IMG/VR virus record: IMGVR_UViG_3300020375_000001
Location: 1-64,000 of that record
Strand: one strand, 5' to 3'
DNA length: 64,000 nt
DNA from: a virus
Lineage: Duplodnaviria > Caudoviricetes
Shown here piece by piece: positions 1,364-63,476 of the stretch. A program made the translations under genes and the position numbers. The notes beneath the pieces were generated by a model, which was not told where the DNA came from, searched no databases, and saw nothing but the letters and a program-made list of their open reading frames with translations. How positions within the stretch are numbered: position 1 is the stretch's first letter; each line of letters begins with the position of its first letter.

Positions 1364-1885
1364 TTATAACCTACCCTTGGATTCATGCGTTGCAATTAAC
1401 TCTGCAAAACTAATTGGTTTAAGGTCATGGTGGTCAATGGCAACATTAATAAAGCGGGGGTCATCGATGGGGACATCTGATTCACTGTGTAGGTGACCGT
1501 GTATGTTATACTTTCGTCCACGTAAATGGTCAGGGTGGATAGGCATATGGCTCCACCAACAGTTACGTCTGGAAAGATACGGAATGACTTCACAATAGTG
1601 CTCTACCAAATGATGCATTTTGATTTTCTTTTCGCAGCAATGGTTTCCTGGCACAACTGTTATCTTAGCGCAGTGGTGGTCACCCACCAACTTCTTCATT
1701 CGTCCTAGCCAATACAAGCTTTGACAAATGTCCCCTACCAGAATGACCGAGTCTTTTTTGTGGAGCATGGAGGCAAAGTTATCAAACACCACCTCATCAT
1801 GTTCCTCCACTGAAGCAAAGCCTCTAAACTTGTAGTTGTTGTGTGCCCCTAAATGGAAGTCACTTCCCGTAATCAAACGCGCCAT
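1364..1885 (-). CDS. Calcineurin-like metallophosphoesterase
   Basis: SDFHLG, VGDI, PGNH, SHMP and IHGHLH motifs. Confidence 0.9.
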   Translation of the reverse strand: MARLITGSDFHLGAHNNYKFRGFASVEEHDEVVFDNFASMLHKKDSVILVGDICQSLYWLGRMKKLVGDHHCAKITVVPGNHCCEKKIKMHHLVEHYCEVIPYLSRRNCWWSHMPIHPDHLRGRKYNIHGHLHSESDVPIDDPRFINVAIDHHDLKPISFAELIATHESKGRL

Positions 1886-1887
1886 AG

Positions 1888-2280
1888 TTACACCATCACA
1901 ACGTTGCCCATCTCAGCCAGCATTTTGGTCTCAGATACAATTGTATCTACCACACCAGTACACTCGACGTTATCCAGACAATCTTTACCCATGTACGCAA
2001 AGAACTGTTCAGTCAGGTCTCTTGCAATACCTTGTCCACGCATACGGGTTGCCGTATACAGATTAAATTGTGGTTTACCGTTTGGGGTATCCACAAGGAT
2101 GGCAATGCCTTTATTAGGCTCCATCACAAAACTCACTACGCTAGGGTTGGTAGGGTTAACTAACGCTTCACGGTACTGGTTTAGCAAACTGTTATCTGAG
2201 ACATTACCGGCGTCAAACATTCCATTACGAATCAGAAAATCGGCTAATAATCTTAAGGGTTCTTTTTTTACAATAATCAT
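1888..2280 (-). CDS. GNAT-family acetyltransferase (start re-called at 2280)
   Basis: Motif A RMRGQGIARDL; the track start at 2361 lies inside a terminator hairpin. Confidence 0.7.
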   Translation of the reverse strand: MIIVKKEPLRLLADFLIRNGMFDAGNVSDNSLLNQYREALVNPTNPSVVSFVMEPNKGIAILVDTPNGKPQFNLYTATRMRGQGIARDLTEQFFAYMGKDCLDNVECTGVVDTIVSETKMLAEMGNVVMV

Positions 2281-2342
2281 TTTTAATTCTCTATTAAAGG
2301 GTTCTATACTTAAAGTCCATAGTGTAAAAATAGTACAGACGG

Positions 2343-2374
2343 CAAAAATGGCTACTCCCACAAGGAGAGTAGCC
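2343..2374 (-). terminator. Intrinsic terminator
   Basis: GGCTACTCTC-cttgt-GGGAGTAGCC followed by ATTTTTG. Confidence 0.75.
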
Positions 2375-2499
2375 TAAAAGGAAACAAATGAAGTCTTTTA
2401 ACTCAATAAAAGGAAGTCAAGAACATGCAAACATCAAGCACACGAACTTCTGGACCCGACTCCGTCCGTAAGTGTTACAGGGTGTTACAGTTGATTAAC
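2343..2499 (-). ncRNA. Candidate sRNA with two anti-RBS motifs
   Basis: TATG at 2499-2502, no long ORF, two UUCCUUUUA motifs, 10-bp hairpin (2350-2374) plus U tract. Confidence 0.5.
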
Positions 2500-2566
2500 A
2501 TATAATAGGTAAAAACTGAAAAAGTTTTTTCTCTAAGGTTACGTGCTCTTTACCGTGGTCGCAGCA

Positions 2567-3148
2567 TCACGCCAGATGAGCATCTGTCTCTTCAACTAGA
2601 TACCTATTTCTTTCTTGGACTTCTTTGATTCTATCAGGGCAGGAATAGTGTTTAATAAGTATTTGTAAATTCTGATTCCCGTCTACGTCATCAAAGTAAG
2701 TCACACCTTCTATATCATCGTCAGCGTAGACTCCTTTTGAATTGAATTGCAAAGTTTGCATTTCTGAATAAAAGAATACCGACCCTAGGAACCTAGGGGG
2801 TATTATATTCAAGGTCATGCGGAAACAACTTTCCACTGAAGCCACCATCTTGTCAATATTATTGGGCTTAACGTTGGTCCTTGCGAGAACTGTCCGTAAT
2901 CTTCTCACTACCCTCTCTGGAACGAGTTGGTCTTCAACTATGGGGGTGAGTCGGGAGATTATAGACCTGCAGAGTACGCGCATTAGGAAGTGGTTGATTC
3001 TTTCATCTTCCCAACACAAGCGCCCACGCACATTCATTATAACTGACTGACCACGGTCGAACATTAGTTCTGATAACGGATTGTCTTCGCAACTTGCCCA
3101 GTCATCTTCGCGAGGATTAATTCCTCGTCTGTTACCGGTATAGGCCAT
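2567..3148 (-). CDS. Hypothetical protein
   Basis: 193-aa ORF with GAGG SD. Confidence 0.75.
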   Translation of the reverse strand: MAYTGNRRGINPREDDWASCEDNPLSELMFDRGQSVIMNVRGRLCWEDERINHFLMRVLCRSIISRLTPIVEDQLVPERVVRRLRTVLARTNVKPNNIDKMVASVESCFRMTLNIIPPRFLGSVFFYSEMQTLQFNSKGVYADDDIEGVTYFDDVDGNQNLQILIKHYSCPDRIKEVQERNRYLVEETDAHLA

Positions 3149-3232
3149 CTAGTTACCTCTGCTATTCTCTGGGTTAAAGTGGCTACGTTGTGTAGCTCTA
3201 TATCTAAAGAGACTTGAGTATTTTTTATCATG

Positions 3233-3262
3233 AGGCATAAAAGGGGTTCGAAAGAACCCCTT
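3233..3262 (-). terminator. Hairpin + TTATGCC element
   Basis: AAGGGGTTC-4nt-GAACCCCTT then TTATGCCT after the holin-like gene. Confidence 0.6.
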
Positions 3263-3279
3263 GACTTTCTTGCAGGTTT

Positions 3280-3939
3280 TTAAAGTTTAAACAACTTTTT
3301 GGTAACCACATCCCCAACAGCACCGCCAAAGGTTTTCTTTGGCTCGGTAGCAACACCGAGTTGTGCATTGGCGCGGACGCGCTTATCTTCAGTACGGTCA
3401 CCAAAGTAAGACCGGATAACCCAAATAGGGAAACCCAAGATAATACTCCATGACGTATAGTCAGGCAACAAAGCCTTTAGAGCAGTTAGCTCTGCGGCGG
3501 CCAGTGCCATATTCTTATCTGCTTCAAACATTGACATCGCTTTGTAGGCAATATATGCATTTGACCCAATTGCCACCAACAAACCAAGAAACACTAACAC
3601 CACCATAGCGGCCACAGTTCTAGGACGTGTCTTACTACCATGTTTTTCAGCTTCGATGTGCGCCAATTGAATCTTGACGGTGTTGTCATCAATATGTCTA
3701 CGGAAGTTTAACGCCGCAATCTCTTTCGCCACCTCACTCTCGATAATGCGAGCCTGCGTGTCTGGCGGGAGACCTTGGACTGCTTTTGCAACTTCTTCAC
3801 CAGTTGCTTTCTGCGGGTCGAGTCGTTGGTCTGGTTCAACAAACTCATTTACTTTCTCAACTAATTTATTTCCGAGGGATGGGATGACAGCACTTAGTAC
3901 TGCTTTTCCCACGGTCCCCAAGACGGCTAAAAGACTCAT
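3280..3939 (-). CDS. Holin-like membrane protein (3TM/GTA holin-like); start re-called at 3939
   Basis: GAGG SD before MSLLAVLG; amphipathic N-terminus, two C-terminal TM helices, basic tail. Confidence 0.5.
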   Translation of the reverse strand: MSLLAVLGTVGKAVLSAVIPSLGNKLVEKVNEFVEPDQRLDPQKATGEEVAKAVQGLPPDTQARIIESEVAKEIAALNFRRHIDDNTVKIQLAHIEAEKHGSKTRPRTVAAMVVLVFLGLLVAIGSNAYIAYKAMSMFEADKNMALAAAELTALKALLPDYTSWSIILGFPIWVIRSYFGDRTEDKRVRANAQLGVATEPKKTFGGAVGDVVTKKLFKL

Positions 3940-14221: not shown

Positions 14222-14265
14222 CGGCGTTTCCTTTTATTTTATCAGAAAGAGTTTCATTTGTTTCG

Positions 14266-59264: not shown

Positions 59265-61238
59265 TTACCCAGCTAGAATATTGTCGTAGTTGTGGTCCGG
59301 TTTATTATGGTCGATGTACGACGTAGGTCGCAGAATAACATCGCCGTGACGTTCGAATGCCATCGCCGCAGACAAGCTACGGTTAAACATATTTTCACGG
59401 TGAATATTAAAGACCTCTTCATCATTCCCAATTGGTGGGGCACATGAATTAGACCTTGCTGCGTCCGTAGCCAGAAGCGCCAATAGTAGAATCTCAAGAT
59501 GCAATACGTTTACATCAGCACGACTGTTTACAATATCGTAAAGCTTACGCAATGCTTCTGCTGACGTCTTACAACCGTAGACTCCGTTTCGACTCTTCTT
59601 CTCAGTGAAATCTGAAATGCTTTGCATATATTCAAGCATGTTCATGTGTCGCTGAGGCATCACCAGGAATGGTTTACTGAATGTCCAATTGGCCAAATCA
59701 ATAACGTAGTCACCATACCGGTTCACCGTCCAACCGTACTTCTTCAAGTATTCTAAGAAATCATAAGTAAAGCTAGCCAAACGCGGACCTACGCTAGTAG
59801 GAACAATATGCTCAACCGCTTCCCTTTCCCCACGGGCATTCTTAATGTGTCGACGAATTACAACTTCCGCCATCACAGCCAGTGTGGTTGTAGGCAATAT
59901 TTTAACATCCGTTACCTCAGGGTTATTGATGTCATCAAGGTACTTGACGTATTGCTCAGGGATGATTAACTCTGGTTCGTAGTCCTTCAGGGTCATGTGG
60001 AATTGAATCTTCGATTGGTCCGCACCATTCAATTTAATGAACTCTGCATCCCGCTTCTCAATATTCAAATGCTCAGCTACCGATGAGCCGTCTTCGTGCT
60101 TAGTTGACATTACCTTTTGCGTTACGAATGAACATAACGCAATGGCACTGATATGACCAAGACGAGTGGCTTGACGATAGTACATCTGACTAGGGATTGA
60201 ATAACTCAATGCCCCAGCACACGCCTCACACACGTTGTATTCGTGGCGATGCTTACATTCAAGAGGAGAACGTAGTTTAACTCGCTGTCCCTCCAAATGT
60301 TTAGACTCCAAGGTAATTTCTTCCAGACTACCATCTGGCAGTACATGGTACTTACCATTAAGGTTAACCAATGATTTCTTGGTGACTTGGAATACAACCG
60401 TACGGTCACTTCCACAATCACCGGGTACTAAGCCTTTAACGTATTGGTTCTGTAATGAAACCTTACGACCAAAGTACTCAGTCTTACGTAGTGGTTCTGT
60501 GGTTACTTTCAGAGCCTTAGTACCAGAGCGAGATTCCTGTGCAGATTCCGCCAGTATTTTAAGCCCCTCAATAAATCCACGCAGGATTGGTTTACGGAAG
60601 ATGTTAGAATCGTAGTCTGTAATGAAACCACGAATAAATGCCTGTAACACCTGACCGATAGAGATTAGGTTAGCGCGACATGCATCTGCAATTGCATTAC
60701 CATTTAAGGTAGGGCATGTCATCACCGTTTCCGTAATCTGACGATAGGCCTGTTCAATACTGACAGTACTAGGGCGTACTTCAGCAATGGCTTCTCGCAC
60801 TACCGGATGTTCGAAGATGTCAAGGTAATCTAACACCGAGATTGTTGTAACGTACTCTTCCAGTTGTTCACCAGTGAATACAAACACGTTGTTAAAAATA
60901 ACCATCGCCATACGGTTCAACAAGTCCATATCGCGACAGATGCCTTGGTCGAAACATTCCCACAGTGGGCGTGACATCAATTTCTTGTGCACGCCATTAC
61001 CGAATACCACATTACCGATATGGTGATGTGGCAACAGAGCCAACTGTGGGAACTGACGATGATAGTCCCAATAAATAGTTGAGACTATTGTCTTACGACC
61101 GTTTACGGTTTCTACTGTACCATCATCGAACTTTAAGTTCATGGTCAGGACATTGTCAAACCGTTCCATTAGTTCTGGGATTGATAGATTAAGTAAATCT
61201 CTTGCCAGAATTGTTTCGTTTAGATGAATTGGATGCAT
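59265..61238 (-). CDS. rpoC: Non-virion RNAP beta' C-terminal subunit (phiKZ gp74-like)
   Basis: RSPLECKH...VCEACAG; GHISAIALCSFVTQKVMSTKH trigger loop. Confidence 0.88.
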   Translation of the reverse strand: MHPIHLNETILARDLLNLSIPELMERFDNVLTMNLKFDDGTVETVNGRKTIVSTIYWDYHRQFPQLALLPHHHIGNVVFGNGVHKKLMSRPLWECFDQGICRDMDLLNRMAMVIFNNVFVFTGEQLEEYVTTISVLDYLDIFEHPVVREAIAEVRPSTVSIEQAYRQITETVMTCPTLNGNAIADACRANLISIGQVLQAFIRGFITDYDSNIFRKPILRGFIEGLKILAESAQESRSGTKALKVTTEPLRKTEYFGRKVSLQNQYVKGLVPGDCGSDRTVVFQVTKKSLVNLNGKYHVLPDGSLEEITLESKHLEGQRVKLRSPLECKHRHEYNVCEACAGALSYSIPSQMYYRQATRLGHISAIALCSFVTQKVMSTKHEDGSSVAEHLNIEKRDAEFIKLNGADQSKIQFHMTLKDYEPELIIPEQYVKYLDDINNPEVTDVKILPTTTLAVMAEVVIRRHIKNARGEREAVEHIVPTSVGPRLASFTYDFLEYLKKYGWTVNRYGDYVIDLANWTFSKPFLVMPQRHMNMLEYMQSISDFTEKKSRNGVYGCKTSAEALRKLYDIVNSRADVNVLHLEILLLALLATDAARSNSCAPPIGNDEEVFNIHRENMFNRSLSAAMAFERHGDVILRPTSYIDHNKPDHNYDNILAG

Positions 61239-61265: not shown

Positions 61266-63434
61266 TTACTTACCCGGTTTATACGGTGAGTAGACAAACT
61301 CAACACCACCACACATCATCAAATGTTTCATGAGCTGTAGTGGGCGTGAATTGCCACGAGGTATTTTGTTACGGTCAACAACGCAATCAATGTCGGTTGG
61401 TTTATCCGCATTCATTATGCTAATGTTGATTGCTTCTGATGAATACAACGAGTTTGTTCTATCCAGCAGTTCCGCTACGGTATCTGGGTCCATAACTGCA
61501 GACATCAGACGTACCTCAGATTCACCCGCAAATCGAACGGGCGACTCACGATACGGATTTAAGTATTTATCCGCTCTACCTAATTGCACCACAATGCCAT
61601 GGTGCTGACGTTTAGCAATTGACGTCGTAGACCAGTCTTCACCAGTCTTATCCAGCAACATCATGTATTTGGTGTCAATGGCCACTGGGCGTTTCGTCGT
61701 AATCATTCGACCGGTATTACCACGATAGGTAACTGGCCCAACAATAGAACGATGATTCGCTTCAATATCCCTGACTTGCTGAATGCCAACGTTGGGGCTG
61801 TTGGGCGGTAGCATCAGCGTAATCGCTTCTTGGTCCGATAACTTCGGATTGAGAATTGACTGCACATGTTCGTCTTGCTTAGCCTTAGTATCAAGGTGCT
61901 TTAAGCAATACCAATACATATACGGCGACGCTGCTTTGTAGTACGCCATCAGTAGGTCAAAACCTTCTTCTAACGAACTTGCATTCCGCACTCGACGAGC
62001 ACATTGTGTACTTGCCTGGTTAGTCCATTGTTCAAATATCTGTCCGACGTTTGAACGCTTAATAACTGACAACGGGTCTTTAATTACGTCCGCACGAATA
62101 CCGCAAGCAGTGGTAGGCATATCTTCGTCTTCACGAATACCTACAATTACACCTTTGGTCCCATGTGTATCGGTAATCTTGTAACCGATAGTGGGAACCT
62201 TGCGATAGGCATATGTAATCTCGATATTGAAATCGTCCAAAGGCGCTTTGTTCTTAGTGCGAACTACACGGTCTTTAGAAGACTCTGGGAAGTTAGCCAA
62301 AGCTTTTACTACCCAGCCGTGGAACTCAGGGGTAATGTCTAAATTACCCTTACCACGCTTCTTGCTGTTATGCTGATACAGCTCAATGATTTTACGGAAG
62401 AACAAATCTTTGCTCCGCACGTATTTCATCATGTCATCTTCCATGCCAGTAGGCGTGGTACGATAACGCGCATTGTGGTCGGTCAGGACATCAACATCAA
62501 CAACCTTTGCACCGGGCTGGGCATAGATTGTTTTATCGAATTCAAAATCGACACGGTCGGCTAACAGATTACGTGGATGTAAATCTGAGATTGTCAGGTT
62601 AGGGTCCATTTGACGGAACGCCATAATCAAACCATCTTCACGAATTGTTTCACCGGGTCCTGGGAAAGGCTTGTAGTAATTTTCATCACCGTACAAGTTC
62701 AGTGGGAAATACTGCTTACCGCAAGATGCAGTACGCGTTCCCAACATAGTCGTTGCCAGTTTTTGCTGATAACTTCTGCTGATTTCAAAACCATCCTCAA
62801 TGATACCGGGCACGGTTAAATATGCCACGTTAGTTTCGATGCCGTATTTATAGTTACCCTGACGGTCTACACACGGCGAATCTTTTATCACGGTACCTTT
62901 GGCTATGGTTGCACCTTTAACTATCTTGCTGGCGTTCTCAGTATCTTTATACTTCCACCCAAGGCTAGTGTGCTGGAAGAAGTAATTCTCCAGTAAGATG
63001 CTGCCAATTTCTTTGGTCTCGAAATCCTCATAGACGACTAGCGTCGATGGGTTCTCTTGAATTGCTCCTTGAGATATCTGTTTGGCATATTTTGGGAACA
63101 CGCCAAGGATTGTTGCATTCACCGGAATGCGTTGGTTAAATGTATACTTACCAAACTCACGTTCGGTACCGGTTAAGTTACGACGAACAGTTACACCTTC
63201 AGTAACTAATCGTTGTTTAAGGTGCGAAGCTTGCATCTGTTGCCGAGATGCTGAGTTAACTGCCACCCAAGGATTTAAATTAGTAGGGGCACCTACCAAC
63301 TCGATATCCAATTCATTAACCAGACTGGCATTCCCCTGCTCGTCTAAGCGGACGAACTTTTCAGTCTGTAAGTCAATGTACATTGGCTCACCATCCATAT
63401 CGGTGATATGACGGTAACGGGTTTCATCAATCAT
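61266..63434 (-). CDS. rpoB: Non-virion RNAP beta C-terminal subunit (phiKZ gp71-73-like), uninterrupted
   Basis: SRQQMQASH, IEDG, GYKITDTHGTKG, RSNVGQIFE, RFAGESE. Confidence 0.92.
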   Translation of the reverse strand: MIDETRYRHITDMDGEPMYIDLQTEKFVRLDEQGNASLVNELDIELVGAPTNLNPWVAVNSASRQQMQASHLKQRLVTEGVTVRRNLTGTEREFGKYTFNQRIPVNATILGVFPKYAKQISQGAIQENPSTLVVYEDFETKEIGSILLENYFFQHTSLGWKYKDTENASKIVKGATIAKGTVIKDSPCVDRQGNYKYGIETNVAYLTVPGIIEDGFEISRSYQQKLATTMLGTRTASCGKQYFPLNLYGDENYYKPFPGPGETIREDGLIMAFRQMDPNLTISDLHPRNLLADRVDFEFDKTIYAQPGAKVVDVDVLTDHNARYRTTPTGMEDDMMKYVRSKDLFFRKIIELYQHNSKKRGKGNLDITPEFHGWVVKALANFPESSKDRVVRTKNKAPLDDFNIEITYAYRKVPTIGYKITDTHGTKGVIVGIREDEDMPTTACGIRADVIKDPLSVIKRSNVGQIFEQWTNQASTQCARRVRNASSLEEGFDLLMAYYKAASPYMYWYCLKHLDTKAKQDEHVQSILNPKLSDQEAITLMLPPNSPNVGIQQVRDIEANHRSIVGPVTYRGNTGRMITTKRPVAIDTKYMMLLDKTGEDWSTTSIAKRQHHGIVVQLGRADKYLNPYRESPVRFAGESEVRLMSAVMDPDTVAELLDRTNSLYSSEAINISIMNADKPTDIDCVVDRNKIPRGNSRPLQLMKHLMMCGGVEFVYSPYKPGK

Positions 63435-63476
63435 TCTCGTAGTATCCTTTTATTTTAATGAGAGTATGTCACCTAG

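Follow-up and report, generated by a model that had tools for sequence, protein, structure and literature searches.

The gap between a 193-aa gene and the gene that follows it on the minus strand of the window very probably holds a real, conserved non-coding RNA module, a conclusion well supported by comparison with related phages. Among its exposed stretches, the most strongly conserved one is exactly complementary to a leader carried by about 26 genes of the same phage, which suggests that the element is probably a small RNA damping their translation. The best single mechanism we can offer is that of an anti-leader riboregulator of early-class genes; we propose it tentatively and give it somewhat less than an even chance.

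The window is the whole stretch of 64,000 nt that was analysed. It forms the first part (bases 1-64000) of an IMG/VR viral contig of 207,748 bp that has terminal repeats (G000 denotes the whole contig), and the sequencing runs containing this contig are labelled marine. The products of 61266-63434 and 59265-61238 (722 aa and 657 aa) resemble jumbo-phage RNA polymerase beta/beta'-like subunits at 31-36% identity, in agreement with the labels given to them in a preliminary description of this DNA. As identity to the phiKZ-like jumbo phages is no higher than this, G000 is a distant, uncultured member of the group.

A conserved non-coding unit with an intrinsic terminator

Relatives were reached via the polymerase subunit and a protein database. 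Two of them, G001 and G002, are complete-looking and have a polymerase subunit 84-86% identical to that of G000, with 71-73% nucleotide identity in the element region. Single-protein searches of viral contigs with the 193-aa and GNAT-like genes returned no relatives, and a metagenome scan gave only an apparent second copy of the G001 contig. The element alignment comprises nine sequences from eight lineages, namely the window's phage and seven related lineages. Among cultured phages (50,697 records) there was no DNA match to the element and no protein match to the 193-aa gene. An Rfam scan of the window gave no match at gathering score and nothing at E up to 10 either, the best sub-threshold scores being 22-23 bits against cut-offs of 41-50, and tRNA and tmRNA scans of the window found nothing.

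The minus strand holds nearly all genes around the element. In the alignment, four conserved parts (box 1, box 2, box 3 and a hairpin with T-run) stand amid variable, indel-rich sequence, and the unit and its neighbours are laid out as follows.

2567..3148, minus strand: upstream 193-aa gene of no known family, with no Pfam or PHROG match
2344..2499, minus strand: candidate small RNA of ~156 nt, counted from the G of the invariant TATG through the last base of the terminator's T-run
2494..2510, minus strand: box 1, ACCTATTATATGTTAAT (TATG 2502-2499, G at 2499), a candidate start or processing signal
2452..2463, minus strand: box 2, GGAGTCGGGTCC, a possible short hairpin (GGR / GUCGGG loop / YCC) or partner of the box 3 UUGAC
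2405..2420, minus strand: box 3, TTGAC-TTCCTTTTATT, with the anti-leader 'seed' TTCCTTTTATT at 2415-2405 and a conserved TTGAC before it
2385-2375, minus strand: second CU-rich motif, GTTTCCTTTTA, lineage-specific
2344..2374, minus strand: intrinsic terminator, hairpin 2374-2350, then A and a T-run at 2348-2344
2300..2330, minus strand: middle-type promoter-like element, TTTTTACAC ... TATAGAACC, outside the RNA, putatively serving the downstream gene, conserved in relatives
1888-2280, minus strand: downstream 'GNAT' gene, 130 aa, with an RGQGIA motif read by eye

The TATG, hairpin, two CU motifs, micro-ORFs and leader copies of the preliminary description are all present where it had placed them. 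Its view of the gap as an ORF-less minus-strand unit closed by an intrinsic terminator is confirmed and extends to related phages: the unit 2499-2344 is kept in eight lineages, with the flanking 193-aa protein down to 41-51% identity. The element is single-copy in G000, G001 and G002, and boxes 1 and 2 are without paralogues. ORFs of at least 20 aa are absent from the minus strand at 2566-2361, where the longest has 12 aa, and no ORF on either strand of the element is conserved across lineages. The ATG within the minus-strand TATG opens ORFs of 7-25 codons with sequences that are unrelated among lineages. As a minor feature of this genome only, the 5' part of the candidate RNA contains a tandem direct repeat, two copies of CTGTAACAC at 2490-2482 and 2480-2472 (minus strand).

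The terminator was found by a terminator scan, as expected from the 10-bp hairpin with U tail described earlier. Its stem has 10 pairs, 6 of them G-C, with a loop of 5, and is followed by ATTTTTG. In 7 of the 10 stem pairs both sides have changed among the eight lineages with pairing kept, and a run of 5-10 T follows in all lineages except L015 (TCTTT). The orientation of the T-run marks out the minus strand as the functional strand of the element, and together with the compensatory changes in the hairpin it speaks for selection acting on the RNA. The terminator's 5' arm and loop are also pyrimidine-rich and anti-Shine-Dalgarno-like (CUCUCCUUG in the window, ACCUCCUUG in G001), and the polarity of its arms is opposite to that of most other hairpins of the genome, where the G-rich arm comes first.

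The same orientation bears on the alternative offered in the preliminary description, that the plus strand encodes two micro-proteins (2388-2471, 27 aa; 2425-2505, 26 aa) using the leader-like motifs as ribosome-binding sites. Both ORFs exist, with a leader-like motif 5 and 10 nt ahead of the ATG; a 16-19-aa ORF starting MK comes after the second motif in G001 and G002, and box 3 is followed by an ATG in L019. However, hairpin and T-run have the orientation of a minus-strand transcript, and the ORFs fail on conservation. A start after box 3 is seen in two of eight lineages, the window and L019, whose frames relative to box 2 disagree. The ORF that follows the second motif runs to 27, 16, 19, 5 and 3 codons in five lineages and is absent in three; in the window it reads through box 3 in another frame than in G001/G002, with no conservation of the peptides. 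The micro-ORFs were rejected as genes because start, frame and peptide are not conserved, and we give this reading almost no credence.

Downstream of the terminator, the gene content varies. The GNAT-like gene is absent from G001/L020, and in L019, too, a 173-aa phosphoesterase-like gene directly follows the element. The one support for the 'GNAT' label itself is the motif read by eye; the product has no Pfam or PHROG match.

Such gains and losses right behind the element, along with the conserved promoter-like elements after the terminator, would suit a DNA-level signal, such as the operator/promoter architecture of the downstream middle-type promoter or a hot spot of recombination. Against this, the compensatory changes and oriented T-run point to RNA-level selection, and the boxes lie upstream of the terminator, not adjoining the promoter. 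We regard a DNA-level role as very improbable.

Inside the unit, the terminator is the sole secure structure. Box 2 has the consensus GGRGTCGGGYCC, with GG.GTCGGG.C invariant in the nine-sequence alignment, and its local stem shows an A-U to G-C change with pairing kept. It may form a hairpin of 3-4 pairs with a GUCGGG loop, and pairing over a longer distance fits equally well. Possible partners of the box 3 TTGAC are the GUUAR at the RNA 5' end and the GUCGG of box 2. The former pairing would fit an RNA start at the G of the TATG. In all, three competing short helices fit all sequences, with hardly any covariation.

The invariance of the box 2 loop, which is unique in three genomes, could mean that the element is a structured RNA recognised by a protein or another RNA independently of the leader, for example by a phage or host RNA-binding protein that binds the GUCGGG loop, as a decoy or as an export signal. 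The linked 193-aa protein is without known family, and the leader hypothesis leaves box 2 and the TTGAC of box 3 unexplained. Yet no partner can be named, Rfam offers no match, and the leader complement already explains the conservation of box 3, and we consider this account improbable.

Box 3 and the leader it complements

Box 3 follows the consensus TTGAY(0-2 nt)YYCCTTTTRTT, in which TGA, CCTTTT and TT are invariant in the nine sequences, and its TTCCTTTTATT is the exact complement of the leader AATAAAAGGAA. The window contains seven copies of AATAAAAGGAA, against 0.07 expected. Six are on the minus strand, each 5-9 nt ahead of a start codon, at 14228 (744-aa gene), 28718, 29115, 44186, 46137 and 61247 (polymerase subunit), and the sole plus-strand copy, at 2405-2415, lies inside the element. 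A 10-nt leader match is present at 63445, before a polymerase subunit gene. These six exact sites and the 10-nt match are the ones that had been listed for the first of two proposed complements, and all are verified.

The same picture is seen across the whole contig, where the words found most often ahead of genes are all fragments of TTAAATAAAAGGAA. The word ATAAAAGG has 29 minus-strand and 5 plus-strand copies in G000, and 26 called genes carry it at most 32 nt upstream of the start. All of these 26 are minus-strand genes and none is on the plus strand, a restriction that may reflect temporal class. The strand bias is also found in relatives (17 versus 2 copies in G001, 20 versus 2 in G002), one forward copy in each being the element itself, and in distant lineages the leader also stands ahead of genes.

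We see that the match is specific at the level of exact words. The four 8-mers that occur most often across all start regions are complementary to box 3. An exact complement of at least 8 nt is found in 33 of 230 start regions, whereas shuffled seeds average 4.3, and 18 of 2000 of them attain 33. Complementarity between box 3 and the leader extends over 10-13 nt in every lineage, and over 12-13 nt in L018 and L019. An A-to-G change in the L016 seed, at the position of 2407, still allows pairing with the leader via G-U. Covariation of seed and leader was absent in L017 (21 kb of contig), where the seed reads CCCC, with CC at 2415-2414, and the leaders GGAA/GGAT; across relatives both seed and leaders are almost invariant.

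Folding predictions place much of box 3 in the open. Its predicted mean unpaired probability is 0.35-0.89 versus 0.46-0.50 overall, or 0.67 versus 0.48 when averaged over eight homologues. The core CCUUUUAUU is predicted to be mostly unpaired, with a cost of 0-4.7 kcal/mol for forced opening, and the UUGAC and UCC of box 3 may pair within the RNA.

Duplex energies between the seed region and the start regions were no better than shuffled seeds achieve: at -16 kcal/mol or lower, 58 sites qualify, and the shuffles have a mean of 41 and a maximum of 64. This indicates that much of the apparent affinity stems from CU-rich composition and that only the exact words are specific. The sequence YCCCTTTTAT also arises as the 3' arm and U-tract of ordinary terminators, and of the six copies antisense to local transcription, three have this origin.

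These observations bring in the main rival explanation, that the element is a purely cis-acting 3'UTR of the 193-aa gene whose boxes serve 3'-end formation, stability or processing. The leader match would then be a by-product of a 'C-rich arm plus U-tract' composition, as the lack of energy-based target enrichment above shuffles and the three other antisense copies of the leader word, which are terminator flanks, would suggest. However, the count of exact words is specific given that composition, as the shuffled seeds indicate, and the complement is longest in L018 and L019. A cis-acting 3'UTR might also explain the boxes by folding: box 2 and box 3 would form a long helix which, with the UUUUAUU behind it, could serve as a weak terminator preceding the strong one. 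Pairing of box 2 with box 3 is possible in all nine sequences, with standard pairs at all positions but one. On the other hand, this putative terminator would enclose 45-60 variable nt, and free folding forms it only in G002; moreover, CCUUUURUU and GUCGGG are invariant despite protein identity of ~41-44%, whereas helices normally covary.

The second complement of the preliminary description, at 2375-2385, has fared less well. Its match to TAAAAGGAAAC of the 744-aa gene is present in the window, and the motif is kept as TTYCCYTTT in the window, G001, G002, L015 and L018, but L016 and L017 lack it, and L019 has lost the whole segment. The motif is thus dispensable, and it is not conserved.

Promoter classes and the origin of the RNA

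Three promoter-like motifs recur in the genome: an early-type motif, a middle-type motif, and TATGMCGTCT directly after hairpins. The first two are located as follows.

63484, 29200, 17296 and 11867, minus strand (window sites), with ~11 more in G000: early-type motif, a T-rich tract and then TATATYATC-nn-GTG
~3185-3215 of the window, minus strand, and 122606, 183494, 184635 and 115336 of G000: middle-type motif, AAAAATAC-N15-(C)TATAG

The AT-rich TATATYATC-nn-GTG resembles the extended early consensus of phiKZ. It is often trailed 15-45 nt later by the leader TTAAATAAAAGGAA, and an early-like motif lies ahead of the RNA polymerase subunit gene at 63434, or of its operon. The leader is found behind the early-type promoters of 9 of 15 genes, compared with 17 of 215 others (Fisher p = 2e-6), and pairs of early-type promoter and leader recur in G001 and G002. 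This link, with the leader sites at both RNA polymerase subunit genes, makes it reasonable, by analogy, that the leader marks early genes and the polymerase, as the preliminary description had supposed.

The middle motif of phiKZ is AAanTTACc (PMC4666361), and the layout AAAAATAC-N15-TATAG resembles it. One promoter-like copy of the middle type would drive the 193-aa gene and another the gene downstream of the element. Transcription of the 193-aa gene from its middle-type promoter near 3190 meets no terminator until 2374, so that the element must form part of the gene's mRNA.

Homologues of the 193-aa gene in metagenome assemblies have 183-297 aa, at identities down to 41%, and a gap of 225-265 nt with the element always lies behind them. 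An AlphaFold model of the 193-aa protein (mean pLDDT 56) was too poor for a fold search. In the closest relatives the protein has 208 aa (L004:1722-2348, L005:1766-2392). The window gene ends ~15 codons early at a TGA (2567-2569), which makes the T-rich stretch before box 1 former coding sequence. A T-rich tract before the TATG, described earlier as part of the unit, is thus present in the window but genome-specific, being the coding end of the 208-aa gene in relatives.

The region is found in marine metatranscriptome assemblies from three studies, as assembled contigs without strand, ends or abundance. A contig from X17 (depth 32) covers 2365-3484, with gene and element unbroken, and stops inside the hairpin. 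X13, which might contain some DNA, has everything in one 18-kb contig; the breaks seen in X16 and X18 carry no information, these runs being of low depth, and in X19 a small share of the sequence words is present. The stop codon of the upstream gene lies 8-22 nt before box 1 in relatives, and since the unit directly follows this stop and one RNA contig covers both, the element may be a 3'UTR-derived RNA instead of a late gene in its own right. For a purely cis-acting 3'UTR, too, the X17 contig ending in the hairpin and the short distance from the stop codon, with no terminator between, are favourable points. We hold the cis-acting reading to be rather unlikely.

How an anti-leader RNA might begin depends on box 1. 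Its consensus is TATTATATGTTA, also written WACYTATWRTATGTTAR, with TATG and GTTA invariant in all nine sequences, and the genome has no second copy. In phiKZ, the late start motif of the non-virion RNA polymerase (nvRNAP) is 5'-TATG-3', with the G as start (PMC4666361), and TATG is required, though not enough, for a late start (PMC4666361; PMC12809450). The enriched form in G000 is TATGMCG, with 32 intergenic copies, 28 of which come after a stable hairpin; 9% of random windows fold as stably as the hairpins preceding TATGMCG. Box 1, by contrast, reads TATGTTA and is without an upstream hairpin. As it is single-copy and unlike the recurrent TATG sites, an own promoter and 'late' transcription are unproven: the late promoter of the preliminary description retains its invariant TATG, but not the genome's recurrent context. 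No sigma-70 promoters were found in 1800-3400. In short, the RNA may be a 3'UTR-embedded small RNA that is either processed or started at box 1.

The proposed mechanism and known systems

In the anti-leader mechanism, a minus-strand RNA of ~155 nt would either start at the TATG of box 1 or be cut from the 3' end of the 193-aa mRNA, and its own 3' end would be formed by the hairpin and U-run (2374-2344). The exposed box 3 (UUCCUUUUAUU, with a length of 12-13 nt in distant relatives) would form base pairs with the common leader (U)AAAUAAAAGGAA, located 13-19 nt upstream of the start codons of ~26 phage genes. The targets would preferentially be the first genes behind early-type promoters, together with the window's two RNA polymerase subunit genes. 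With the Shine-Dalgarno sequence masked by the duplex, the genes that carry the leader would be translated less, and their mRNAs might also become less stable. The accumulation of a discrete RNA, the time at which it is made and repression by its pairing are inferred. The small RNA of the preliminary description accordingly stands as a conserved unit with a leader-complementary seed, but its second complement is not conserved and its 'late' timing is unproven. A more far-reaching version, a global anti-leader switch in a nucleus-forming-type clade that is made with or after a middle gene, pairs with the private leader of 11-13 nt on early-class mRNAs and silences translation of early-class genes and nvRNAP together, seems to us doubtful.

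There are precedents for phage RNAs of this kind. The c4 antisense RNA of phages P1 and P7 (Rfam C4) and the sar RNA of P22 prevent translation by pairing with the phage's own ribosome-binding region. Processing of a longer transcript yields c4, sar is a genuine cis-antisense RNA, and both act on one operon (ant/icd). The element would share with them the masking of the phage's own ribosome-binding sites by a phage RNA. Whereas c4 and sar belong to temperate phages and address one operon, here one short seed would address ~26 dispersed genes in a lytic-type jumbo phage.

Shut-off of many early mRNAs is also known from T4, where the protein RegA is a translational repressor that shuts off early mRNAs via their ribosome-binding sites. 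The T4 endoribonuclease RegB cuts GGAG in early Shine-Dalgarno sites (context in PMC9409239). The proposed logic is the same in our phage, but the effector would be an RNA, and no homology is implied.

Among cellular RNAs, RsaE/RoxS of Firmicutes and alpha-r14/NfeR1 and the CcsR 'cuckoo' RNAs of alpha-proteobacteria address many mRNAs through C/U-rich anti-Shine-Dalgarno seeds. A short, conserved, pyrimidine-rich motif and an end at an intrinsic terminator are common to these RNAs and the element. The host RNAs usually carry the motif in hairpin loops, often repeated, whereas the element has one invariant, linear seed of 11-13 nt and would be phage-encoded against the phage's own genes. Unlike theirs, its seed reaches beyond the Shine-Dalgarno sequence into the A/U-rich leader upstream of it. 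For the origin of the RNA, the enterobacterial 3'UTR-derived small RNAs CpxQ and SroC, and MicL with its internal promoter, are the closest parallels: they likewise use the terminator of the upstream mRNA and are processed, or have a promoter at the coding end, but there is no sequence relation.

Small RNAs have been mapped in 201phi2-1 and phiKZ by ONT-cappable-seq; three are intergenic in 201phi2-1, and one is conserved across genera (PMC11512511). This conserved chimallivirus RNA is derived from a 5'UTR, upstream of a tail gene (PMC11512511). The element would likewise be a small RNA in a phiKZ-like jumbo phage, but it matches none of the 50,697 cultured phage records.

Temporal control in phiKZ-like phages has so far been explained by two phage RNA polymerases and three promoter classes, and we know of no post-transcriptional shut-off of early genes in this group. 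If the anti-leader mechanism is true, it would add an RNA layer to this programme, as an RNA counterpart of RegA and RegB that feeds back on the phage's own polymerase. The persistence of a leader of 13-14 nt, far longer than a Shine-Dalgarno site, before many genes would be explained as well. Although the phage is uncultured, the hypothesis is testable with synthetic reporters.

Apart from the element, the recurrent TATG sites form a module of their own in G000, in which a G+C-rich hairpin is followed within 2-3 nt by TATG(C/A)CGTCT. Examples in the window are these.

17326, 17680, 29291, 38702 and 44208, minus strand: hairpin-TATG(C/A)CGTCT
22889, 43771 and 63950, plus strand: hairpin-TATG(C/A)CGTCT

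The module looks like a fused terminator and late-start signal. Some hairpins between convergent genes carry the TATGMCG motif on both sides (22889, 99166, 180294/180322), elsewhere the TATG of the module sits 20-40 nt ahead of a start codon, and the module is also found in the L017 lineage.
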